DNA of 64,000 nt from Torpedo marmorata (lineage: Eukaryota). Shown here one piece after another: positions 18,738-64,000 of this stretch (positions are counted from its first letter, which is position 1; each line of letters starts with the position of its first letter). Under the pieces are notes generated by a model. The model was given only the letters and a program-made list of their open reading frames with translations, made no database searches and was not told the origin of the DNA. The position numbers were made by a program, and so were the translations under genes. The stretch covers positions 224,874,001-224,938,000 of the forward strand of contig OZ360221.1 in NCBI GenBank assembly GCA_977017645.1. The letters run 5' to 3'.

Positions 18738-20993
18738 GTGTGTGTGCAACAAAAAACCAGCAACAATGGATGTAGAACATTTTTTGGATCACCTGAACCT
18801 GATACTTTAAAAAAGGCGAAAAAGGAACAGTTAGTGGCTATAGCAACAGAGTTGGGCATTGCTTCTGTAAAACCATCTATGAAAAAGGCAGAGATTTGGA
18901 GAAAAATTGTCAAATACTATATAAAAGAAAAAAAATTTGAGGAGAGCGTGTTAGAGCAGTTTCCCAAGGGTAAACCTTCTGAAAACATACAGTTGGAATT
19001 AAAGAAATTGGAATTGGAGGCAGCCAGAGAACAAAAGAAATTAGAATTGGAGGCAGACAGAGAACAAAAGAAATTAGAATTGGAATTGGAACAAAAGAAA
19101 ATAGACATGGAATTGGAAATAAAGAGACACGAGAACGATGAGAGAAATAGGAGATATATGCTGGAAAAGATAAAGTTGGAAAATGAGAGGAGACAAGAAG
19201 AGCGCCAAGATCAAATTCGTCATCCTGCTGAGGGGTTTTTGGCTAGTAGAGAAGTTAGGTTGGTTCCTCCATTTGAGGAGGCAGAAATAGATAAGTACTT
19301 CCAACATTTTGAGAAAGTGGCTGTGAAATTAAAATGGCCACAAGACCAATGGTCTCTTATGTTGCAAAGTGTAATAAAAGGAAAAGCTCAGCAAGCTTAT
19401 TCTACTCTCACCACAGAGCAAGCTGCTGATTATGAAACGGTGAAAAAGGCTATACTCCAGGCTTATGAGTTAGTTCCAGAGGCTTATAGACAGAAGTTTA
19501 GAAATTTAAAAAGAACAGCAACCCAATCTTATACAGAGTTTGCCTATGAAAAGGTTGTGTGTTTTGACAGGTGGTGCACATCTAAGGCAGTAAACAATGA
19601 TTACAATCAATTGAGAGAATTGATAATAATTGAGGAGATAAAAAGGTGTGTTCCTGAGGATATTAAGGCCTACTTAGATGAAAAGGAGGTGAAAACTTGG
19701 CAAAATTCAGCTAAGTTAGCAGATGAATATGCTTTAACCCACAAGCCTAAGTGGACGTCAGGTAGAATTTTCCAAAAGGTCACGGTGGATAATCAGAAGC
19801 AAGTGGAAAGTAAATTTGGAAGTGGTGTTAAGGAAAGGGATGAAGGAAAGTGGAAAAGGGAAAACAATTCGGGTCCCATTTGCCACTACTGTAGGAAGGC
19901 TGGTCATATGCTAGCAAGCTGTCCAGTGTTGAAAAAGAAGAGAGAAAAGGATGCAACACCTAATGCTTGTATTCAGAGTGAGAAGATGCATAACACCCAG
20001 GAAGGAGATAAATTTACTGACAAAGTTAAAGATGTATTTAAACCTTTTGTGACTGATGGTTTTGTTTCAGTTAAGGCAGGATCAAAACAAGTTCCAGAGA
20101 AAATCTTGCGAGATACTGGAGCTGCTCAGTCACTTGTGTTAGATAGTGTCTTGGAATTTTGTGAAGCTACTGACACCGGTGACATAAATTTAATTAAAGG
20201 AATTGGTGGTGAGGTAGAGTCCATTCCTTTGCACAAAATAGTATTGAACTCAGACTTGGTGGAAGGACCAGTTATAATAGGAGTGAGATCAGAGTTGCCA
20301 GTAGAAGGAGTCTCACTGTTGTTAGGCAATGACTTGGCCAAGGGTAAAGTAGTTCCTGCAGTGCGAATGACCACTAAGCCAGTCATTGATAAGTCAGAGA
20401 AAGACTCTGATATTTATCCGGCATGTGCCATAACCAGGGCCATGTCTAAGAAAAATATCACTGTAGAGAAGGCAGTGGAAAATAACTTGGTAAAAGAAAA
20501 AGACACTGATAATCAAGAAAACCTGGAAAAGGTTGAGCAATCTCCTATATTACACCCATCCACTGATAAGACACCTAAAGGCACAGATTTGTCACTATCC
20601 GGACAGGAGTTAATAGCAAGGCAAAAGGACGATCCTGATCTTGCTGAGGTGAGGGATAAGGTTCTCTCTGAAGAGGAGATTAAAAAGGTGCCAGTAGGTT
20701 ATTATGAAAAAGATGGGGTGTTGATGAGAAAGTGGAGACCACGTGATGTTCCTGCCAATGAAGAATGGGCAGTAGTGCAGCAGGTTGTGATCCCTAAAGT
20801 ATATAGGGATGAAATAATAACTTTGGCTCATAGCACACCCTTAGGTGGTCACCTTGGGGTGAAGAAAACTATACTGAAGATAATGAAACAATTTTATTGG
20901 CCCAGTTTGAGAAGGGAGGTTGTAAGCTTTTGCCGGGCCTGTCACATTTGTCAGGTGGTGGGTAAACCTAATCAGGGTCCCTGCTTTCAGTGA
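18738..20993 (+). pseudogene. Gmr1-like gag (SCAN-like capsid, CCHC) - protease - integrase zinc finger; likely ancestral ATG at 18766 is out of frame
   Basis: VRLVPPFEE..YFQHFEKVA..LKWP; AYELVPEAYRQKFR; CHYCRKAGHMLASC; ILRDTGAAQS; AHSTPLGGHLG...CRACHICQ. Confidence 0.9.
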
Positions 20994-23374
20994 GCCTTTC
21001 TCGAGAGTAATTGTGGACTGTGTTGGCCCATTGCCCAAAACCAAAGCGGGGAATGAGTATTTGTTAACAATTATGTGTGCAGCCACCAGATTTCCAGAGG
21101 CCATTCCTCTGAGAAACATAAAAGCAAAGTCAATTGTCAAGGCTATGGTAAGGTTTTTCACCTTGGTAAGTTTGCCAAGGGAAATTCAATCAGATCAGGG
21201 CAGTAATTTCATGTCAGGCGTTTTCCAACAAGTGGTTGATGGACTAGGAGTTAAACAGATTGTATCCTCTGCGTACCATCCAGAAAGTCAAGGTGCCTTG
21301 GAGAGGTTCTATTCGACTTTGAAAACCATGATTAGAACCTATTGTTGTGAGAAGGAAAAGGATTGGGTTGAGGGGTTCATTTGTTATTATTTGCAGCGAG
21401 GGAGTCTGTCCAAGACTCACTTGGTTTTAGTCCATTTGAGTTAGTTTTCGGACATGAGGTGAGAGGTCCTTTAAGATTATTAAAAGAACAGTGGATTAAT
21501 CGTGATGTGCATTTAAATCTGTTAGATTATGTTTCCAAATTTAAGGATCGATTGCATAGGGCTTGTGAGATGGCAAAGGAGAATTTAAAGGCCACTCAAC
21601 AGAGAATGAAGGTTTGGTATGATCGAAAGGCGAAGATGAGAACTTTTAAACTTGGTGAGAACGTATTAGTTCTGTTTCCCATCCATTCAAATCCTCTTAG
21701 GGCTAGATTTTCAGGACCCTATAGAGTTAAGTCAAAAATTAATGATGTCACCTATGTCATAGAATCACCTAATCGCAGACGAGACACACAGGTCTCTCAT
21801 GTGAATATGATTAAGCCATATTTTGAACAGGTGCCACACAAAGGGACTGAAAATGTACCAGAGGTATTGGTTATTGATCAGGGTAAGGAGGAGATAGATG
21901 AAACCAGTTTCAGAGAGGGTCATGGGACGCAGAAATTGATAAGCCCGAGGTTGGAAAATTCCATGATTTTGCGCAATCTGGAGACAAAGTTGGCTCATCT
22001 GAAAACTTCAGAAAAGGAAGAGATGAGTCAGTTATTTTTAAAATTTATAAGTTTATTTCCTGATGTGCCTCAGAAAATTTCCATCGCTTATCATGATGTG
22101 GATGTAGGAGATGCAAGACCGATAAAACAGCATCCCTATCGAATCAATGCGGAAAAGTGCAAACTGGTAGATCAGGAAATTGACAACATGGTAAAGAAGA
22201 ATATCATTCGAAAGTCTACTTCCAATTGGAGTTCCCCTTGTGTTCTAGTGCCGAAGCCTGATGGAACGGTTAGGTTTTGCACTGATTATAGGAAAGTAAA
22301 TGCTGTAACCAAGACAGATGCTTATCCTATTCCTAGAATAGACGATTGTATAGACAAGTGGGGAAGGCTAAATTTCTTACAAAAATTGACTTATTAAAAG
22401 GATACTGGTGTGTTCCTTTGACAAAAAGGGCTAGGGAGATTTCTGCATTCGTAACACCTTTTGGGCTGTATGAGTATAATGTTATGCCTTTTGGTATGAA
22501 GAATGCTCCAGGAACATTTCAGAGAATGATTAATTCAGTAATTCAAGGGTTGAAAAACACAGGTGCTTACATTGATGATTTAATTGTAAGTAGTGAGACC
22601 TAGGAAGAGCATGTCTTTGAGCTAAAACAATTGTTCAAACGACTGTCCAAAGCAAAACTCACAGTTAATTTAAGTAAAAGTGAGTTTGGACATGCTACTG
22701 TTATTTATCTGGGTTATGTTGTAGGACAGGGGCAGTTGGCGCCAGTAGAGGCAAAGGTTGTCGCTATTTCCGAGTTCCCTGTTCCAACTGGTAAGAAAAC
22801 TCTGAGGAGGTTCCTGGGAATGATTGGCTACTACCGCAACTTCTGTAAAAACTTTGCTGATCTTGCGCTCCCTCTCACAAATTTGCTTAGAAAGAAAGAA
22901 AAATTTGTATGGTCAACAGGTTGTCAGGAAGCATTTGTCAAATTGAAAGCCATGTTATGCCACCAACCTGTGCTTAAGTCACCTAATTTAGAACAGTCGT
23001 TTTCTTTAGCTGTGGATGCCAGCGATGAAGCTGTGGGTGCGGTGCTCTTACAGAAGAAGAACGAAGAGGACATTGACCATCCGGTATCCTACTTCTCGAA
23101 AAAGTTCAATGATCATCAAAGGAATTATTCAACTATAGAAAAAGAGTTGTTGGCTCTTGTGTTGGCTCTACAACACTTTGATGTGTATATCTGTACAGCT
23201 CAAAAACCACTCATAGTGTATACTGACCATAATCCATTGGTTTTTCTTTGTAAAATGAAAAATAAGAATCGACGGTTGTTGAATTGGTGTCTAATTTTGC
23301 AAGAATATAATTTGGTAATCACTCATATAAAGGGGAAAGATAATGTAATTGCTGATTGTCTTTCTAGATGTTAA
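20994..23374 (+). pseudogene. Gmr1-like integrase core, RT and RNase H, broken by frameshifts and a stop
   Basis: DCVGPLPKT, IQSDQGSNF, HPESQGALER; PIKQHPYR, RFCTDYRKVN, MPFGMKNAP, AYIDD; LAVDASD, YSTIEKELLA, TDHNPL, NVIADCLSR. Confidence 0.92.
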
Positions 23375-23506
23375 ACTTTATCAATGAAAATAGTTCATAT
23401 TTTGTATTTGTGGATGAACATTGTAGATTTTGTTTATATTCTGACACCTCAATTACTTTCCTAAATTTTGTTCATGCAGACCAAAATTTCCTTTGTGGGT
23501 GGGAGG

Positions 23507-24374
23507 TGTTACGGACCATGACTGACCATTTGGACTGCGGACGGTCAGCAGGAAGGATGAAGTCTTTTGGAGTACACACTGGGGCCAGGTACTGAAAAAG
23601 TTAACTTCCCCAGGACTTGGTGTACCCACAGAGAGAGAGAGAGAGAGCAGAGAGAGACAGACTGTGGAAAAGATACATTGTTGCACTTTTGCAAAAAGCA
23701 GGGGCAGATCTCTGCAAAGCAGACAGCAGTTGTAAGTTGCAAAGGCTACAGGACATAGCCAAATCCAGGCGTGTGCAAAGTCAGAGAAAAGACTGACAAA
23801 ATAGCACATGGCCTCCTGTCTCACAGAAATTCTGAGAAAAAGCAACTTCTGTGGAGAACAGGCGTGAGATCAACGAGACTAGCTGTGAGATTCAAGCATA
23901 CGCCTAAGTCAGTGGTATACTCATCTGGAACTTGCAATCCTTATGAACCTACAAGAAGGGGACGTCATCAGAGAAGAAAACAAGTATTTGTAAGCATAAA
24001 CAGTCATTGTCTCTCTCCAACGTTCATTCAGAAGTACTTCTACCAGACACAGAGTTGAATTGAAGCCTGAACTTAGAGAGTGAATCTTGTGGACTGAATT
24101 ATTCTTTTTTTTTGACTGAATTGTTTTTTATGACTGACCTGGGGTTTTTGGGGAAAGTTTTTCCATTTTTACATAGGGGTTGGGCACAGACTGTAGTGGT
24201 CTGGGCTTTACACACACACACACACACCTTTTAGATAAGAATAGAGTTTATAGACGTTTATAGTGGGGTTAATTGTTGTGAAATTATATGTTTACTTGTG
24301 TTTAATAAATAATAATTTCAATTTTACCCCTTTTGCATTGCGTCTTCTGTCGTTGCTGGTTTGAATTTGTAACA
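23507..24374 (+). repeat. 3' LTR of Gmr1-like copy 1 (868 bp)
   Basis: TGTTAC...GTAACA termini; AATAAA near 24304; homologous to 61019-61918 in reverse. Confidence 0.92.
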
Positions 24375-24399
24375 CTTGTCACATATATTTTGGAAAAAA

Positions 24400-30560: not shown

Positions 30561-32578
30561 CAAATTGACTGAGGCTCTACAAAAAACACAAGGTTGATGA
30601 CTGATGAAATCGGTGTTTTTAAAGTGATTAAGATTATTCCTACATTTGGAGTAGATGCCATTAATACCTGATATTCACCTAAAAATTAAATAGGGAATAT
30701 AAATGGAACTCTCTTGCCCAGAGAGTGCCATGGGCAGTTGCTAAGACAATTAATATTGACAGGTTTAAATACAACTGAGTTGAGTTTGATGAGGGAGGAT
30801 GAGAGAGACTTGAGTGAAGCAAAGTTACCTGCATGAATATTTTGGGCCGAAAGCCCAGTTTTTATGCTTTGTTTACCATTAATGATGAGAAATTACACAT
30901 CCTTTTTATTCTACACTGTTCCACAATTTTGATGCAGCAATAAAGAAAGCAGAAGTGGTAAGGTCTTCAATGTAGCCTGCAATACTATACCATTTATTTG
31001 CAGATGAATAATAAAAAATAAGTCTTTGCCATGCATTGGTAATGATCATTCATTTTGAGGAGACTCCTGCAAAGATACTGTTGATTAATCTGAACTGGAA
31101 ATTCTACTCTTTGCTGTTATTGGCCTGTAAATGCACAATGATAAGAATTGGTACAGAAATAAATTCTACTGCCTTGCTGTTCCCCAGCTTTGACACCTAT
31201 ATATGTTTAACAGCTTCAAATTAATTCTGTTTTTGTGAAATTTGTGCAATTGTTAATTGTTTCATTATGTTGGTTCTAAGTTAAAAACAACCATCGCTAT
31301 GGAAATAAATTGAATTTTTCGTAGTGGAGTTGACTGTCCTTAATTGGCATTGAATTCAAAGAAGTCTCTTGGGTCCTGTACATTATCTCAATCTACAGCA
31401 GCCCTGTACATATTTTTGAAAGCTAAATGTGCCCTAATACATGATATATAATTGCATCAGATTAAATATTTGATCCTACCCACGTATTTATTTATTTCAA
31501 AATACTCAACATGAAAAGCCCTTTTGCTATTTAGGAAATATAAGATTTTAGGATATCCAGTTTTTGCCTGATTTTTCTCCCTTTCCCATGTTCTCAGGGC
31601 TCAAGTACTAGTGTGATGAGGTCTCATGGGGGCCAGCTAATCTTTGGCAGGGTTCAACTTGGCGTTCATTGCGAGTCTCAAGAGTAAATGCTCATAGGTC
31701 ATTGAAACATGACCAAACCTAATGTCTTTACTAATGCCCTTGCATCCTGCATTTTAAAATGCGATCGAGAGACCAATTTTAGTTCAAGTGCACTCACTTT
31801 TTTTAGATGAGCTGAGATGCCTGGCAAAAGGCCTAAACTTTTATCTCTGAATAGCTGAGTAGCTTCCTCTTAACTATCAAGTCAGGGGAAGGATTGTGGT
31901 AAAAATTCATCGTGGATGGTGATACAAAATGGCAGTATTGGATTGGCTGCCTGTTACATGCAGCACCTGATTTTGAATTCAGTTGAATGCAAGGAATTGT
32001 ACACAAGGTGCCCAGTTTAATGGGTAGCCAATCTGATGCTGCCTGTTTCGATCACTTGCAATGCATTTTTACTTTATTGGCAGTGCAGTGGTTACGATAT
32101 TATACTAACTATCCTTGGGTCTGGACTTGGCTGTTCAGTCAAGATGATGCATTGCTGTTGAAGGACATCAGGGATTTCTTTGGACTGACGCCTGACGTGA
32201 ACCAGTATTAGAAAAAGGAGACTCTGTGTCCCAGAAATCTGTTGCATTTTGGGAACCAGCGCAGTGGAGAGGCCGTTGCTTCATTGACCACAAATGTTAA
32301 ACCAAAGTTCTGTTTTCTCTTTAATTGTGATAAATGGGTCAGAGAACAAAATTGTATGAAGGATCTCTTTGCTCTGTTCAGGATCAGAAGTGACTTATTT
32401 TTTTGCACCATTTGCAAAGTTAGAAGAGAAACTTTTACATTTGGCAAATTTAGGAAAATATTATTTCAATAAATAACTAAATAAATTAACACGTACCTAA
32501 GCAAAGATCTGGACTCACTACAATTCGCCTTTCGTCACAATCACTCCACAGCAGATGCAATATCGCTGGCTCTCCACA

Positions 32579-32773
32579 CACAGACACGAAGAAAGTGATC
32601 AAAGGCTTTATTGATCAGAAAGTTCGAGCATGCCTCTACATGCTGCTGGCTCACTTCCAAGGCAGGTATAGGGGAGGAGACTGGGGCTCTCAGCCTTTAT
32701 TAGGGGATGTAATGGGGAGGGGCAACAGGTTAGCCCGGTGAGCCAGTGAGGACATGTCCGCAGTACCACCACA
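32579..32773 (-). repeat. 3' LTR (outer about 22 bp deleted)
   Basis: Near-identical to 36788-37007; starts TGTGGTGG on minus immediately after the PPT. Confidence 0.9.
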
Positions 32774-32974: not shown

Positions 32975-35703
32975 TTATTGGTAAGAGTGGGGGGGACACA
33001 CAAGTGAAGGGAAACAATCGGGGGGCCGTCTTGGGGGTGGGATCCCCATTTCATTTGTCAGGGTGATCCCTGGGGCCGACTGGTCGCTGCCTGGGGATAT
33101 CGGGTGCACCTCCCGTGCCGGGGCCCCCGCTCGCGCCAGATCCCGGATAGACACTGTATCGTCCCGTCCATCCGGGTACCTTACCAGCGCATACTGGGGT
33201 TTGGCATGCAGGAGGTGCACTTCCTCGACCAGTGGGTCCACCTTATGAGTCCTAACGTGCTTCCGAAGAAGTACCGGCCCTGGGGTCATCAGCCAGACTG
33301 GCAGCGTGGTTCCCGACGCCGATCTCCTAGGGAAGGAGAACAATTTTTCTTGGGATGTAGCATTGGTGGTCGTGCAGAGTAGGGACCTGGTAGCATGCAG
33401 CTCATCAGGGAGGACCTCTTGCCACTGGGATACATACGGGCATCCCTTTCGACTTGAGGGCCAAAAGGATTGCCCTCCAGATCGTACCATTCTCCCTTTC
33501 TACCTGCCCTTTCCCGCGGGGGTTGTAGCTGGTGGTTCTGCTCATAGCTATGCACCTTGAAAGGAAGTATTTCCGCAACTCCTCACTCATGAAAGCAGAT
33601 CCCCAGTCACTATGAACGTAACTAGAGTATCCGAACAGAGTCAATACTGAGCGGAGTGCTTTAATGACCATGGATGTGGTCATATCCGGGCAGGGGATGG
33701 CGAATGGGAAACGTGAGTACTCGTCCCCGATGTTCAGGAAGTAGGGGTTCCGATTCGTGGACGGGAGGGGCCCCTTGAAGTCAATGCTGAGACGTTCAAA
33801 AGGGCGAGTGGCTTTGATTAGTTGGGCTCTATCCGGTCTATAAAATTGAGGCTTGCATTCGGCACAGACCTGGCAATTGCGAGTCAGCTCCCTTACTTCC
33901 TCCACTGAGTAGGGAAGGTTCCGGGCTCTCACAAAATGGTAGAGCCTAGTGACCCCGGGATGGCAGAGACTATCGTGGAGGGCCTGGAGGCGATCAACTT
34001 GCACCCTGGCGCAGGTTCCCCTGGACAGGGCATCGGGTGGCTCATTGAGCTTACCCGGCCGGTACCATATTTCATAATTGTAGGTGGACAGCTCAATTCT
34101 CCACCTCATGATTTTGTAATTTTTGATCTTACCCCGCTGTTTATTGTTAAACATGAACGCGACGGCTCTCTGATCCGTCAGCAGGGTGAATGATCTGCCG
34201 GCCAAGTAGTGCCTCCAGTGACACACTGCCTCCACTCTAGCCTGTGCCTCCTTCTCGATGGCGGAGTGCCTGCGTTCGGGGCCTTGGAGGGTACGGGAAA
34301 AAATGCGACTGGCCTGCCTGCTTGGTTCAGCGTGGCGGCCAGGGCGAAGTCAGAGGCATCACTTTCCACATGGAAAGAGACGGATTCATCAATGGCGTGC
34401 ATTCCCGCCTTGGCAATCTCGCCTCTGATGCCCTCGAAAGCCTTACGGGCCTCCGCCGACGGTGGAAAAGTCGTGCTTCTCACTAGAGGTTGGGCCTTGT
34501 CCGCATAGTTAGGGATCTACTGGGCATAATAGGAGAAGAGCCCCAGGCACCTTTTTAAAGTCTTGGGGTTCTGTGGCAAGGGTAATTCCAGTAGGGGGCG
34601 CATACGCTTGGGGTCAGTGGCAATAGCCCCATGCTCCACCACGTACCCCAGGATTGCCAGCCTTTTGGTTCTAAAGACACACTTTTTCTCATTATACGTG
34701 AGATTGAGTGCCTTTGCGGTGGCCAGGAACCTCTGAAGGTTCTCGTCATGTTCCTTTTGGTCATGGCCGCAGATGGTGACATTGTCCAAGTATGGAAACG
34801 GAGCCTTCAGCTTATTGTCATCCACCATGCGGTCCATTTACCTTAAGAACACTGACACCCCATTCGTGAGACCGAATGGTAGAGTCGGCCGTTGGCCTCA
34901 AATGACGTGTACAGCCGGTCTTTTGGGTGAATCGGGATCTGGTGGTACGCCGCTTTTAGGTCTATGGTCGAAAAGACCCTGTACTTGGCGATCTCATTTA
35001 CCATCTCCGATATGCAGGGCAAAGGGTAGGCGTCCAGTAAGGTGAACCGGTTGATGGTGTGACTGTAGTCAATTACCATCTGATGTTTCTCCCCACGCTT
35101 CACCACAACCACTTGCGCCCTCAAGGGACTATTGCTTGGCTCTATAATGCCCTCCTCCCGCAGCCGCTCCACTTCCGTTTTAATGAATTTTCTGTCCCCG
35201 GGGCTGTATCGCCTGCTCTTAGTAGCAATGGGTTTACAGTCCGGGGTGAGGTTTTGGAACAGCGGGAGCGGAGGGACCCGGAAGGTGGTTAGTCCACAGG
35301 TCGGGTACCCAGCCCGGCTTTCAATCGTGTGATTGGGCCTCCTCTGGGTAATGGGCGGGGACTGGTTATTAGTGACGGTGAGTGGGGGGTGGGGCCCGTC
35401 AAACTGCATCAGCACCTTTTTGAACTGGCACTGGAAATCTAGCCCCAATATGACGGGTGCATAGAGGTGGGGCATTACCAGCAGTTTAAAATTCTTATAA
35501 TTGGTGCCCCCCACAGTTAGGGTCACGGTGCAGCTTCCGCGGATTTCGACGGAGAGGGATTTGGAGGCTAATGCTACCTTTCCCTTGGCTGGGGACACAG
35601 TCAAGGAATAATGCTCAGCAGTGCCCGGGTGTATGAAGCTCTCAGTGCTTCCCGTGTCGAACATGCAGCCAGTGGAGTGACCGTTTACCTCAACGTCCAT
35701 CAT
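32975..35703 (-). pseudogene. Gypsy pol (protease, RT, RNase H, integrase) with several frameshifts and stops
   Basis: MFDTGSTESF; KPIATKSRRYS, DAYPLP, IDLKAAYHQI, PYLDNVTI; VESDASD, TDQRAV, DALSR; HDSLCHPG..CQVC, IDFKGPLP, GQVERENG. Confidence 0.92.
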
Positions 35704-35706
35704 CGA

Positions 35707-36739
35707 TCACCCCAGCTGGTGTGATCTCCCTTGGTCCAGCATGATGGACGCCAGCGTCAGCTCACTGTCCGAGTCGCTGCTGCTGTTTCGGGGTGGCTGC
35801 CACCAAGGTGGCCGCAAGGGAGGTCGTGAAGATGGCCGCCCCCATGGATCGCATGAAGTTGAGTCCGGAGAAGAAGCAGGAAGTGACGTCAGTCCTCTTT
35901 GTTGCGCCCCTGTTCCGGAAGCTCTGTTTTCGGCAGCCGGAAATGACGGCGGAAGTGGGTGGGTCCAAGATGGCGAGGTGAGTCGCGGTCCGCACGCGGT
36001 ACTGCTGGAGTGGGGCTTGGAGCGACAAACCCTGGCATAATGTCCCTTCCTCTGGCAGTTTGAGCAGGTTGAGCTACGAGCCGGACAGTACTTCTGCAGG
36101 TGTCTACTTTGGCCGCAGTAATGGCACCTCGCATGGTCGGTGGTGGCCGCTGCAGTCAGGGGCGTCGAGTCCCAAGATGGCACCACCCGTTCTCCCCACC
36201 TGGTGGCCGCGTGGCCCGCTGAGTAGGCCTCCGCGTTCTTTTGGGCCGTCTCCATCGCTCGGGTCATCTGCACCACTACCTGGAGGGACCGATCTCCTTC
36301 CTCCAGGAGTCGCTCCCTTATGTGCTGGGAGCGGAAACCCATCGCGGATGAGCTCCTCTTGGTAGAGCGCCGCGCTCACGTCCCTGCACCCACAGGCTCA
36401 TCCCAGCTCCCGCATGGCCCTCACAAACTCGTCTACTGACTCACCTGGACCCTGGTGTCGGGAGCCCAGCTGGAAGCGTGCGTACATGGCGTTGGCCGGG
36501 ACTCCGTATCGTTGTCGAAGTAGAGCCATTGCCTCTTCATATTCGGTGCAGTATCGTATAATTTGGTACATTCTGTGGCCCACCGCTGCGAAGAGCAGAT
36601 CATACTTATCCGGGTCGGTTGTGATATCGTGGTGCCTCAGATAGGCCTTCAAGCAGTGTAGCCACATATCGAACTTTACGGAGGCCTCTGGTTCCTTGGG
36701 GTCGGTCTCCAGCTTCTCCAGTCTAATTCCCTTCTCCAT
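35707..36739 (-). pseudogene. Gypsy gag with two CCHC knuckles, frameshifted
   Basis: ATG at 36739 MEKGIRLEKL...; RHQGPGESVDEFV; CHYCGQSRH...C and CSNCQRKGHYARVC. Confidence 0.85.
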
Positions 36740-36765
36740 GGCACGTAAAATTCTGATCAATAAAT

Positions 36766-37007
36766 TGTAGCGCGATCAATGACCACTCACAGACACGAAG
36801 AAAGTGATCAAAGGCTTTATTGATCAGAAAGTTCAAGCATGCCTCTACATGCTGCTGGCTCCTTCCAAGGCAGGTATAGGGGAGGAGACTAGACTCTCAG
36901 CCTTTATTAGGGGATGTAATGGGGAGGGGCTACAGGTTAGCCCGGTGAGCCAGTGAGGACATGTCCGGACATGCCAGGACATACCCGCAGTACCGCGTTC
37001 CACCACA
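36766..37007 (-). repeat. 5' LTR (242 bp)
   Basis: Minus strand TGTGGTGG...GCGCTACA; AATAAA at 36816-36821 (minus). Confidence 0.92.
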
Positions 37008-38540
37008 CTCTGGATCACCTCGAAGAAAGCAATTCATACATACGGCTGCTCTTCATCGACTACAGCTCGGCCTTCAATACCATTATTCCCTCAGTGCTGG
37101 TCAAGAAGCTACAAACTCTAGGCCTCTGTACGCCCCTCTGCAACTGGATCCTTGACTTTCTCATCAGAAGACCACAGTTAGTATGAATTGGAAACAACAT
37201 CTCCTCCTCAATGATTATCAACACAGGCGCACCCCAAGGATGCGTGCTTAGCTAACTGCTCCACTCGTTATACACCCCTGACTGTGTGACCAGGCACAAT
37301 TCCAATGCCATATACAAGTTTGCCGATGACACCACAGTTGTCGGCAGAATCATAAACGGCAATGAAGTAGTGTACAGGAGAGAGATAGATCAGCTCGTTG
37401 AATGGTGTAACGACAACAACTTGCGCTCAACATCAGCAAAATGAAGGAGATGATTGTGGACTTCAGGAGGATGTCAGGGGAACACGACCCAGTCTTCATT
37501 GAGGGCTCAGTAGTGGAGAGGGTCAAGAACTTCAAATTCCTGGGTGTCAACATCTCCCAGGATCTGTCCTGGAGCCTCCACGTTGATGCAATCACAAAGA
37601 AGGCTTGCCAGCGGCTATACTTTGTGAGGTGTCTGGGGAGCTTCGGTATGTCACCGAAGACTCTCGTAAACTTCTACAGGTGTACCGTGGAGAGCATTCT
37701 AGCTGGTTGCATCACTGCCTGGTATGGAGGCGCCAGACTTCACTCCATCAAGGACATCCACATGAGGCGGTGTCTTAAAAAGCAGCCTCTATCCTCAAAG
37801 TCCCCCACCACCTATACCTCTATCCCCCACACAGAAGGTCTGAAAGCACTTCGCTTCTTCCTGGACCAAAGACCCGACCAGTCACCCTCTACCACCACCC
37901 TCCTCTGCCTGGCAGAACTTGTCCTCACTCTCAATAACTTCAACTCATCCCACTTCCTCCAAATCAAAGGTGTAGCCATGGGTACCCGCATGGGTCCCAG
38001 CTACGCCTGCCTGTTTGTGGGCTTTGTGGAGCAATCCATGCTGCAAGCCTACACAGGCAAGACCCCTCATCTCTTCCTCCGTTATATCGACGACTACATC
38101 GGGGCTGCCTCATGCACCCGCGATGAGCTTGTCAACTTCATCCACTTCGCATCCAACTTCCACCACGATCTCAAACTCACCTGGTCCATCTCCGATAACA
38201 CTCTCCCCTTCCTGGATCTCTCTGTCTCCATCTCGGGAGACAAGCTTTCCACCGACATTTACTACAAACCCTCCAACTCCCACAACTATCTGGACTACAT
38301 TTCCTCACACCTTGTCCCCTGCAAGGATTCCATCCCCTTCTCTCAATTTCTCCGTCTCCGCCGCATCTGTTCCCAAGATGAGGTGTTCCACTCCAGATCT
38401 TCTGAAATGTCTGCCTTTTTCCACAAACGTGGCTTCCCCTCCACCACCATCAACTCAGCCCTCACCCGCATCTCCTCCATTTCCCGCTCATCTGCACTGG
38501 CCCACTCTGCCCCCAGACGCAACAAACATAGAATCCCCTT

Positions 38541-59874: not shown

Positions 59875-61018
59875 CAGTTTTACAGCACAGGAACAGGCTC
59901 TGCGGCCCAACTTCTCCGTGCTGATCAGAGAGTCTTCCCAAACTCGACTCATTTGTGTGTGTTCAGCCAAAATCCCTCTAAACCTTTCCCATCCACGTAC
60001 TATACCTGTCCAAATGTCTTTTAAATGTTACAGTCGTACCGGCCTTACCACTCTGGCAGCTCGTTCCATATACCAACCACCCACTAAGTGAAAAATATGT
60101 CCCTCAGGTTTCTTTTAGATCTTTCCCTTTCTACCTTAAATCTATGCCCTCCAGTTTTAGTTTCCTCTGCCCTGGGCGAAAGACTACAACTATTTACCTT
60201 GTCTATAAACCTCTATTAGGTTACACCTCAGCCTCCTATGCTCCAAAGAGAGAATTCCAAGCCTAACCAGCTATAAAGCCCACTCCCACCAAATGTCGGT
60301 TATGTATTTCTACCTTTGCTACATAAAAGACACTGTTTGACCTGCTGAGTTTCTCCAGCATTTGTGTTTTTACTTCAACCACGGTGTCTACAGATTTTCG
60401 TGATTTACTACTGTTGTACCATTCCTGTGCATCTTTCCAAGTTAATGGCATCCTTCCTATAGCTGGGTGACCTGAACTGCGCACAATACTCCAAGTGCTG
60501 CCTCACCAAAATCTTGGACAATTGTAGCATAATGCGCCTGTTCCTCTATTCAATGCTTTGACCAATGACGTCAAGCATGCCAAATACCTTCTTCCCTACC
60601 CTATATCACTACTTTAATGGATTTGTGCACCTGTACCACTAAATCTCTTGTCCTGCATCACTGTCTGCAGCCCTACCATTTACAGTGCAAGTTCTGCCAT
60701 GGTTTAACCTACCAAAGTGCAACACCTTGAACTTGTCTGAGTTAAATCCCACATGCCATTCCTTGGCCTATTTTCCTCATTCACCTGGATCCTATGAAAT
60801 CATTCTTCACTGTCTATTCAAAATTTTCGTGTCATCCACAAATTTACCAACCATGGTAAATTTACCCACAATTTACCTACATTGTCATCCAAAATGTTAA
60901 TATAGATGACAGGCAATGTTGGACCCAGCAATGATTCTGAGGCATACCATTGGACACAGACTTCCAACCTGAGTAATAATCTCCACTATTTTCCTCTGAC
61001 TCCTACCATCAAGCCAAT
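59875..61018 (-). mobile_element. Degenerate CR1 3' part with a Penelope tail inserted at about 60290-60410
   Basis: CR1 3' UTR gaacaggc..cggccca; LEYCAQF.SP; KFVDDTKI; Penelope tail ctgtttgacctgctgagtttctccagc. Confidence 0.75.
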
Positions 61019-61918
61019 TGTTACAAAATCAAACCAGCAACGACAGAAGACACAATGCAAAAGGGGTAAAATTGAAATTTATATTTATTAAAGACAATTA
61101 AACATATAATTTCACAACAATTAACCCCACTATAAACATCTATAAACACTATTCTTATCTAAAAGGTGTGTGTGTGTGTGTAAAGCCCAGACCATTACAG
61201 TCTGTGCCCAACCCTTATGTAAAAATGGAAAAACTTTCCCCAAAAAACCCCAGGTCAGTCATAAAAAAACAAGTCAGTCAAAAAAATAGAATAATACAGT
61301 CTACAAAATTCACTCTCTAAGTTCAGGCTTCAAATTCAGCTCTGTGTCTGGTAGAAGTACTTCTGAATGAACGTTGGAGAGAGACAATGACTGTTTATGC
61401 TTACAAATACTTGTTTTCTTCTCTGATGACGTCCCCTTCTTGTGTGTTCATAAGGATTGCGAGTTCAGATCAGTATACCACTGATTCAGGCGTGTGCTTG
61501 GATCTCACAGCTAGTCTCGCTGATCTCACGCCTGTTCTCCAGAGAAGTTGCTTTTAACTCAGAATTTCTCTGAGACAGGACGCCATATGCTATCCTGCCA
61601 GTCTTTTCTCTGGCTGCACAAGCCTGGATTTGGCTGTGTTCTCTAGCCTTTGCAATTCACAACTGTCTGCTTCTTGCAGAGATCTGCACCTGCTTTTTTA
61701 AAAGTGCAACAAATGTATCTTGTCCACATTCTGTCCCTCACTCTCTCTGGTCTCTCCCTGTCTGGGTACACCAAAAGTGCAACAATGTATCTTGTCTGGG
61801 TACACCAAGTCCTGGGGAAGTTAACTCTTTCAGTACCTGGCTCCAGTGTATACTCCAAAAGACTTCATCCTTCCTGCTGACCGTCCGCAGTCCAAATGGT
61901 CAGTCATGGTCCATAACA
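61019..61918 (-). repeat. 3' LTR of Gmr1-like copy 2 (900 bp)
   Basis: Minus strand TGTTATGG...GTAACA; homologous to 23507-24374. Confidence 0.92.
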
Positions 61919-62478
61919 CCTCCCACCCACAAAGGAAATTTTGGTCTGCAAGAACAAAATTTAGGAAAGTAATTGAGGTGTCAGAATATAAACAAAATCT
62001 ACAATGTTCATCCACAAATACAAAATATGAACTATTTTCATTGATAAAGTTTAACATCTAGAAAGATAATCAGCAATTACATTATCTTTCCCTTTTATAT
62101 GAGTGATTACCAAATAATATTCTTGCAAAATTAGACTCCAATTCAACAACCGTCGATTCTTATTTTTCATTTTACAAAGAAAAACCAATGGATTATGGTC
62201 AGTATACACTATGAGTGGTTTTTGAGCTGTACAGATATACACATCAAAGTGTTGTAGAGCCAACACAAGAGCCAACAACTCTTTTTCTATGGTTGAATAA
62301 TTCCTTTGATGATCATTGAACTTCTTCGAGAAGTAGGATACCGGATGGTCAATGTCCTCTTCGTTCTTCTTCTGTAACAGCACCGCACCCACAGCTTCAT
62401 CGCTGGCATCCACGGCTAAAGAAAACGACTGTTCTAAATTAGGTGACTTAAGCACAGGTTGGTGGCATAACATGGCTT

Positions 62479-63993
62479 TCAATTTGACAAATGCTTCCTG
62501 ACAACCTGTTGACCATACAAATTTTTCTTTCTTTCTAAGCAAATTTGTGAGAGGGAGCGCAAATCAGCAAAGTTTTTACAGAACTTGCGGTAGTAGTCAA
62601 TCATTCCCAGGAACCTCCTCAGAGTTTTCTTACCAGTTGGAACAGGGAACTCGGAAATAGTCACAACCTTTGCCTCTACTGGCGCCAACTTCCCCTGTCC
62701 TACTACATAACTCAGAGAATGAACAGTCCCATGACCCTCTCTGAATCTGGTTTTATCTGTTTCCTCCTTACCCCTGTCAATAACCAATACCTCTGGTAAA
62801 TTTTCCGTCTCTTTATGCGCCACCTGTTCAAAATATGGCTTAATCATATTCACATGACAGACCTGTGTGTCTCGTCTGCGATTAGGTGTTTCTATGACAT
62901 AGGTGACATCATTAATTTTGGACTTAACTCTATAGGGTCCTGAAAATCTAGCCCTAAGAGGATTTGAATGGATGGGAAACAGAACTAATACGTTCTCACC
63001 AGGTTTAAAAGTTATCATCTTTGCCTTTCGATCATACCAAACCTTCATTCTCTGTTGAGTGGCCTTTAAATTCTCCTTTGCCATCTCACAAGCCCTATGT
63101 AACCGATCCTTAAATTTGGAAACATAATCTAACAGATTTAAATGCACATCACTATTAATCCACTGTTCTTTTAATAATCTTAAAGGACCTCTCACCTCAT
63201 GTCCGAAAACTAACTTGAATGGACTAAAACCAAGTGATTCTTGGACAGACTCCCTCGCTGCAAATAACAACAAATGAACCCCCTCATCCCAATCCTTTTC
63301 CTTCTCACAACAATAGGTTCTAATCATGGTTTTCAAAGTCGAATGGAACCTCTCTAAGGCCCCTTGACTTTCTGGATGGTACGCAGAGGATACAATCTGT
63401 TTAACTCCAAGTCCATCAACCACTTGTTGGAAAACGCCTGACATGAAATTACTGCCCTGATCTGATTGAATTTCCCTTGGCAAACCTACCAAGGTGAAAA
63501 ACTTTACCATAGCCTTTACAATTGACTTTGCTTTTATGTTTCTCAGAGGAATGGCCTCTGGAAGTCTGGTGGCTGCACACATAATTGTTAACAAATACTC
63601 ATTCCCCGCTTTGGTTTTGGGCAATGGGCCAACACAGTCCACAATTACTCTCAAGAAAGGCTCACTGAAAGCAGGGATAGGTTGCAAGGGTGCCTTCGGG
63701 GGACCCTTATTAGGTTTACCCACCACCTGACAAGTGTGACAGGCCTGGCAAAAGCTTACAACCTCCCTTCTCAAACTGGGCCAATAAAATTGTTTCATTA
63801 TCTTCCTTATAGTTTTCTTCACCCCAAGATGACCACCTAAGGGTGTACTATGAGCCAAAGTTATTATTGCATCCATATATACTTTAGGGATCACAACCTG
63901 CTGCACTACTGCCCATTCTTCATTGGCAGGAACATCACATGGTCTCCACTTTCTCATCAACACCCCATCTTTTTCATAATAACCCACTGGCAC
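62479..63993 (-). pseudogene. Gmr1-like integrase (HHCC, DDE, GPY) fused in frame to RT connection region
   Basis: AHSTPLGGHLG..CQACHTC, VDCVGPL, SDQGSNF, GALERFH, FSGPYRV, then HGT|VHSLSYVVGQG. Confidence 0.88.
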
Positions 63994-64000
63994 CTTTTTA

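Follow-up and report, generated by a model that had tools for sequence, protein, structure and literature searches.

Structure of the element

The window, i.e., the whole 64,000-nt stretch of DNA that was analysed, carries a decayed Gypsy LTR retrotransposon on its minus strand (Table 1). This element belongs to a large family and is inserted into a plus-strand LINE, the RT reading frame of which it interrupts. It has the hallmarks of Ty3/Gypsy elements, i.e., TG...CA LTRs, a 5-bp target-site duplication (TSD), a polypurine tract (PPT) and the order gag-PR-RT-RH-IN. The ORF pieces of its gag-pol encode a zinc knuckle, protease, reverse transcriptase (RT), RNase H and integrase, and the frame is interrupted by stops and frameshifts. 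The two LTRs of the window copy are 96% identical over 187 columns; an earlier note is corrected here in that the 3' LTR of this copy has lost 17 nt at its end as well as a part of U3. The sequence-only reading had found no recognisable chromodomain or sushi-type gag, and neither was detected in the seven ORF pieces of the window that were scanned. A chromodomain was also absent from four full-length homologues and was not listed by Pfam for any of the best 120 of 1600 homologues. Rfam returned no match, and the Atlas search returned generic gag clusters only. The window also contains another long repeat, of which the copies at 20681-24378 and 61015-64000 are inverted, 93-98% complementary and approximately 38-42 kb apart.

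Table 1. Parts of the Gypsy element in the window (a slash marks the predicted cut).
Feature	Position	Strand	Remarks
5' target-site copy CAGAG	37008..37012	-	AGAG left at 32573-32570
5' LTR	36766..37007	-	242 nt, TGT...ACA (TG...CA); ends set from family copies with two LTRs and 5-bp TSDs
TATA-like motif TAATAAAGG	36901..36909	-	34 nt upstream of the predicted start; putative promoter element
Putative transcription start and 5' end of the self-primer	36875	-	Predicted from fold-back ends
LTR arm TTCTGATCAATAAA	36816..36829	-	Would form the paired 3' end of the self-primer
AATAAA within the LTR arm	36821-36816	-	
Predicted RNA cleavage site AAA/GCC	36815..36816	-	Motif kept across families; truncated U5 copies
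R/U5 loop	36766..36815	-	50 nt; predicted second helix and GU-rich stretch; putative template of the first cDNA
Spacer base A	36765	-	Between LTR end and PBS
PBS TTTATTGATCAGAA	36751..36764	-	1 nt past the LTR end; complements the LTR arm; no TGG
Decayed gag-pol	33077..36739	-	gag ATG at 36739; lower bound is the end of a tblastn match
RT catalytic motif YLDN	34781..34792	-	Typical of the lineage
PPT and TGAA	32774..32793	-	Ahead of the 3' LTR
3' LTR	32574..32773	-	200 nt; final 17 nt missing and U3 deletion

Pairing between the PBS and the LTR arm

In tRNA-primed Gypsy elements (i.e., Mag, Gmr1 and CsRn1), the PBS starts from TGG and complements the 3' end of a tRNA. The lineage of the window element differs from them: as the sequence-only reading had noticed for the window element, its PBS lies 1 nt past the LTR end and does not begin with TGG. 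The same reading had claimed that this PBS is a perfect complement of the AATAAA-containing part of the LTR, and the two segments, TTTATTGATCAGAA (36764-36751) and TTCTGATCAATAAA (36829-36816), are indeed exact reverse complements over 14 nt. An anchored search found 14 Watson-Crick pairs, a number that none of 1000 dinucleotide shuffles reached (0/1000), the best of them having 10, and the 87-nt region had a folding z of -4.7. Both arms were intact in 29 of the 30 best family loci, and exact normal LTR-PBS junctions of the window family numbered 785.

When 20 family copies were fetched at length, 14 had both LTRs, 13 of them with a TSD of at least 4/5 as judged by eye. In these 14 copies, the 3' LTR had the same CA-type end followed by host DNA, and the local hairpin is therefore specific to the 5' end, where alone it had been claimed to form. 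Seven loci (L006-L011 and L015) had identical upstream flanks on small contigs and represent one insertion that was either multiplied in an array or duplicated by the assembly. At another locus (L050; G000:C41:50888300-50898200), LTR fragments and an internal piece were followed by the PPT-LTR-PBS of a full element within one 5-bp TSD, an arrangement that resembles the tandem Tf1/Tf2 products described in part of PMC11042837.

Covariation within the genome and across animals

A sibling family was found in the same genome, with 86 of its 90 loci anchorable. The arm and the PBS were perfectly paired over 14 bp in 76 of these 86 copies, in 8 arm variants. At positions -8, -9, -10, -11 and -13, the compensating base was found in 125 of the 127 minor-allele copies, a count of copies and not of independent events, which are represented by the at least 7 changes separating the 8 variants. 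The pairing stopped at position -15 (6/86). In total, at least 9 different PBS sequences were found in one genome, each matching its own LTR. The control families from the same genome (Mag-type and Gmr1-type) mostly had TGG-type PBSs, with self-complements of at most 9 nt.

Relatives of the element were also found in metagenomes (80 loci), 29 of which had a gag-start match together with approximately 200 nt upstream. The PBS of 22 of these 29 loci formed 11-18 pairs after CA+1 nt, better than all 60 shuffles, and the remaining 7 had fewer than 11 pairs in this strict test. No arm-PBS pairing was detected by this test in L084, L093, L097 and L099, and the pairing was weak or mutated in L057, L064 and L116. 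The LTR ends at CA+1 were verified in the metagenome loci with paired LTRs. The complementarity claimed for the single copy in the window is thus borne out by compensatory changes in the sibling family (125/127) and by the pairing in 22 of 29 metagenome relatives.

The metagenome set, which included several near-copies, was represented by 16 distinct rows. In the latter and in 3 own-genome rows (L076 being mis-anchored), the arm ended with AAA followed by (G/A)CC almost throughout. The combination of AAA/RCC and the CA+1 geometry was constant across rows, and the PBS, which began with TTTA or TTTT, varied along with the LTR. The arm had AATAAA or ATTAAA at its end in 8 of the 16 metagenome rows and in all 3 own-genome rows. 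A second helix starting right after the arm was enriched over all rows (sum of 82 vs 63; 0/1000), but was weak in the window family itself (p 0.88). Many invertebrate arms carried YTTT-AG(T/C) 11 nt ahead of the arm end, which would instead suit a short, Tf1-like primer. For the window and sibling families, we considered a primer of 11 nt from AG(T/C) onwards and dropped it, given that the covariation reaches position -13.

The best 120 of 1600 protein homologues were mostly single polyproteins of up to approximately 1200-1450 aa, and those with named hosts belonged to rays and sharks (71-76% identity) as well as to a sea anemone, Trichuris and Seison, so that the host of the window element is probably a cartilaginous fish. 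Among the 106 of these 120 homologues with a readable RT motif, 83 had DN and 23 had DD. The presence of YxDN instead of YxDD could bear on the behaviour of the RT; our literature search on the YLDN motif found nothing relevant. No relatives were found in the viral contig collection.

Fold-back junctions

In addition to normal LTR-PBS junctions, we looked genome-wide for junctions in which the LTR end, the spacer and the PBS continue with LTR sequence from upstream of the arm in reverse complement. The window family had 29 such fold-back junctions (vs 785 normal ones) and the sibling family had 61, and all 90 were fetched. Genome-wide searches with reversed-pattern controls gave 0 matches, as did a control pattern at a neighbouring TGATCA palindrome, which is a weak, single-pattern control. 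For 32 fold-backs, a candidate far end lay within the locus, and 18 of these had a TSD of at least 4/5. Three fold-backs were palindromes throughout, with a U3 end on either side and a perfect TSD. Given that TSDs flank these fold-backs, the rearrangements must have preceded integration.

The ends of the copied segments were counted after duplicates and known U3 deletions had been removed. The AAA/GCC site had been predicted before the U5 stops were tested. In the window family, 7 of the 19 copied U5 segments stopped at -2 to +3 of this site (p 5e-5), and in the sibling family 6 of 42 stopped at 0 to +4 (p 0.005), both against a local uniform null. Each of the seven window-family copies ran on into a different internal position. 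The six sibling copies also ran on into other sequence; 5 of these 6 stops lay at +4 within a T run, three of them with one acceptor site in common. U5 copies that stop at GCC imply a template with its 5' end there, and these stops are what a template cut at AAA/GCC would leave.

The upstream ends of the copied segments were clustered too. Three of the 11 in the window family lay at one nucleotide (61 nt; position 36875), 34 nt behind the TATA-like motif. Six of the 19 in the sibling family lay at 52-55 nt, at the Inr-like CCAGTCC and 33 nt behind the same TATA-like motif, which is found at -33 in that family. This clustering was noticed post hoc, with p values, after correction, of 0.08 (not significant) in the window family and 0.002 in the sibling family; in later-fetched loci it recurred in 3 of 15 non-full copies of the sibling family and in 0 of 4 truncated copies of the window family. 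The position of the cluster suggests a primer that would span from the cap to the hexamer.

Seven insertions (L384, L403, L409, L447, L451, L461 and L464) were of solo-LTR size (239-261 nt) and had a TSD, with part of U5 inverted directly past the arm; in three of the seven, the switch point lay at the same place in a T run.

Phylogenetic placement

The RT-RH tree contained 48 rows (LG+G4), after 15 of 63 rows, near-duplicate or short ones, had been omitted, and its rows did not include Tf1, sushi, CsRn1 or Cigr-1. Own-genome candidates for chromovirus references were unsuitable: the SH3_Tf2-1 matches had the integrase before the RT and were hence of Gmr1-type, 15 chromodomain matches had no RT or IN nearby, and a search of the same genome with DUF4939 returned none. 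References were therefore taken from eukaryote-like contigs and labelled by Pfam. Dozens of intact eukaryote-type Gypsy elements, some of them with chromodomains, were found in prokaryotic assemblies and viral contigs (L240-L319), where they are most likely contamination.

The lineage formed its own clade (100/100) on a long stem, which can mislead. It fell outside the main chromovirus clade (98/97), and two chromodomain-bearing rows were placed elsewhere. Nesting with one chromovirus trio was rejected (p-AU 0.012), but a sister position to chromoviruses was not (p-AU 0.22), and the attachment to Mag-type rows was weak (76/43). These results, together with the lack of a chromodomain and the mostly YLDN motif, support a lineage that is separate from the sampled chromoviruses. 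The sequence-only reading had suggested that the element may represent a separate lineage, and the RT phylogeny agrees with this suggestion for a tree without Tf1 and sushi.

Comparison with known systems

The features of the window lineage are similar to those of Tf1/Tf2 of S. pombe, Tj1, Tosmo and the Tf1/sushi group, whose PBS, according to the relevant parts of the published accounts, adjoins the 5' LTR, complements the R region of the same element and involves no tRNA (PMC7175516, PMC10085805, PMC4600332). As in Tf1-type elements, the PBS of the window lineage is complementary to its own LTR, lies directly past the LTR end and covaries with it. In Tf1, the PBS pairs with bases 1-11 of the RNA, which RNase H separates from base 12 (PMC7175516, in part), priming requires a structure of three duplexes (PMC10085805, in part), and approximately half of the cDNA retains a single-stranded PBS copy (PMC11042837, in part). 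The RNase H cut that frees the primer in the Tf1/sushi group, as far as these accounts describe it, would have a counterpart in the window lineage, and the extra helices beside the primer duplex may have one in the second helix, which is enriched over all rows but weak in the window family.

Other features differ. Tf1/sushi elements carry a chromodomain and fall among chromoviruses, whereas the window lineage lacks a chromodomain, forms a separate RT clade and mostly has YLDN. The Tf1 primer comprises 11 nt from the very start of the RNA, all of them paired, whereas the primer predicted here would be 53-61 nt long and paired only at its 3' end. The window lineage also differs in its 11-18 bp of pairing and in its arm, which ends with AAA/RCC and often includes the poly(A) hexamer.

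Self-priming has been described for Tf1/sushi, Tcn1 and TAR copia in the accessible parts of PMC6317226, PMC4600332 and PMC5341516. For TAR (Houba/Osr-1) Ty1/copia and Tcn1 of plants, it was predicted from the complementarity between LTR and PBS, and TAR would be, like the window lineage, a case of self-priming outside chromoviruses (PMC6317226, in part). Unlike the window lineage, both have plant hosts; TAR is of a different superfamily and Tcn1 is of a chromovirus clade. An unexplained variant is mentioned for Skipper in part of PMC5006619.

Mag-type elements of the same genome (L157-L162, tentatively labelled by structure) share with the window lineage a double zinc-knuckle gag, short LTRs and a single ORF, but have a TGG-type PBS, the YLDD motif and no self-complementarity. 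They include a very young family (L160-L162) with 146-nt LTRs, 100% identical in L160, and a C-terminal KSPEK repeat (DUF1388) past the integrase. An abundant young Gmr1-type family (L141-L156, L159 and L163) has the integrase before the RT. In L141 of this family, the LTRs are 99.9% identical and an open frame of 1310 aa seemingly lacks the RT core, so that this copy is possibly internally deleted and still mobilised.

Cigr-1 of Ciona intestinalis reportedly has LTRs of approximately 245 bp, one ORF of approximately 1200 codons and an echinoderm-type gag. This reported size suits the LTRs of 242-244 nt and the many homologues of approximately 1170-1260 aa in the window lineage, which, judged by size, may be the Cigr-1 clade. 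In part of PMC6238403, Cigr-1 is a small clade in molluscs and the reference is labelled 'Mag'. Animal clades are defined in PMC6238403 and PMC8220671, the relevant parts of which do not analyse PBSs, and Cigr is not mentioned in PMC2238898 and PMC2774666.

Proposed mechanism and alternatives

The sequences show that arm and PBS pair and covary, that the CA+1 geometry is fixed, that the lineage forms a clade and that fold-back junctions were integrated. From this we propose, with a probability of roughly 0.85, that a widespread animal Gypsy lineage without a chromodomain primes reverse transcription with its own RNA in a Tf1-like manner. Transcription would start near 36875, and the arm ending with AAUAAA would pair with the PBS. 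The RNA would be cut after the last A (AAA/GCC), on the analogy of Tf1 by the RNase H of the element. The released 5' fragment of approximately 53-61 nt, with its last 14 nt paired, would be extended over the spacer base and U5. The primer, still attached, would then be copied by the plus strand, and the PBS would be rewritten from the LTR in every cycle. Because of this rewriting from the retained primer, compensatory changes would be automatic, and arm and PBS would change together cleanly. Occasional read-through or snap-back would yield the fold-back insertions. For the release of the primer by RNase H, the pointer is an indirect one, i.e., the U5 copies that stop at AAA/GCC. That the primer is a longer one, paired only by its last 14 nt, is slightly more likely than not. 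More tentatively, and at somewhat less than even odds, we suggest the combined scheme of an origin independent from Tf1/sushi, a capped primer of approximately 53-61 nt cut behind the hexamer, the rewriting of the PBS, the hiding of the poly(A) signal until the cut, and fold-backs that map both start and cut.

The primer may also come from the other copy of the arm, in that the 3' end of the element's own or a partner RNA, at AAUAAA, pairs with the PBS and no cut occurs near the 5' end. Since the 3' LTR carries this 14-mer as well, pairing and covariation alone cannot separate the two copies, and 1 of the 86 sibling copies has an arm and a PBS of different subfamilies, as such priming would allow. 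The fold-backs argue for the 5' copy instead, since the stops of the U5 copies at GCC imply that the 5' end of the template lay there and the upstream stops cluster at a promoter-like position. Polyadenylation, moreover, normally leaves extra bases and a tail past AAUAAA. We thus consider priming by the 3' copy very unlikely.

The 5' poly(A) signal of HIV-1 lies in a hairpin and is thereby partly shielded from 3'-end processing. It is even less likely than priming by the 3' copy that the helix described here mainly serves this function and that another primer is used. The AATAAA positions, inside the helix, are nearly invariant in the 86 sibling copies, a GU-rich stretch follows the hexamer, and the predicted start approximately 55 nt upstream would let the host read the 5' signal. 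However, AATAAA or ATTAAA is present in only 8 of the 16 metagenome rows, with the helix kept regardless, and masking therefore cannot be the reason of the lineage for the helix, the constant features of which are AAA/RCC and CA+1. The helix always starts 1 nt past the LTR end, i.e., at the place required for the end of a primer, and no other PBS is present. The tRNA-primed Mag-type family has AATAAA approximately 35-40 nt behind its TATA box without such a helix, and masking would leave the stops at AAA/GCC unexplained. Masking is thus at most secondary and may be a by-product in vertebrate families. Of the two functions put forward by the sequence-only reading, tRNA-independent priming in a separate lineage is strengthened by the covariation, the tree and the fold-backs, whereas occlusion of the 5' poly(A) signal as the defining function is not upheld.

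Least likely of all is that a host tRNA fragment or small RNA is the primer, with an incidental LTR match and fold-backs that are template switches at the inverted repeat: the host tRNA set was sampled in part (33 predictions of 9 anticodon classes, with a longest PBS match of 7 nt and failed positive controls), the inverted repeat itself can favour snap-back, and switching at the full repeat seems to have produced L423 and L438, but one host RNA cannot follow at least 9 PBS sequences that each match their own LTR, and there is neither a TGG for the CCA end nor an Rfam match.

Implications

The self-complementary PBS is a real and conserved feature. Self-priming as such is a known mechanism, and what appears to be new is the lineage in which it is proposed, together with the fold-backs that appear to record the cut. 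The parts of the literature covered regard self-priming as characteristic of Tf1/sushi chromoviruses and name TAR copia as one predicted exception, and no report of self-priming in a non-chromoviral animal Gypsy clade was found there (a search without Repbase and the primary papers on Cigr-1 and of Levin). If our reading is true, mis-copied insertions that record cut and start sites would allow the intermediates of reverse transcription to be mapped at exact nucleotides from DNA only. Self-priming by a widespread non-chromoviral animal lineage would mean either a further origin of this mechanism or a much older ancestry, and, with no dependence on host tRNA, such elements may escape silencing by tRNA fragments.
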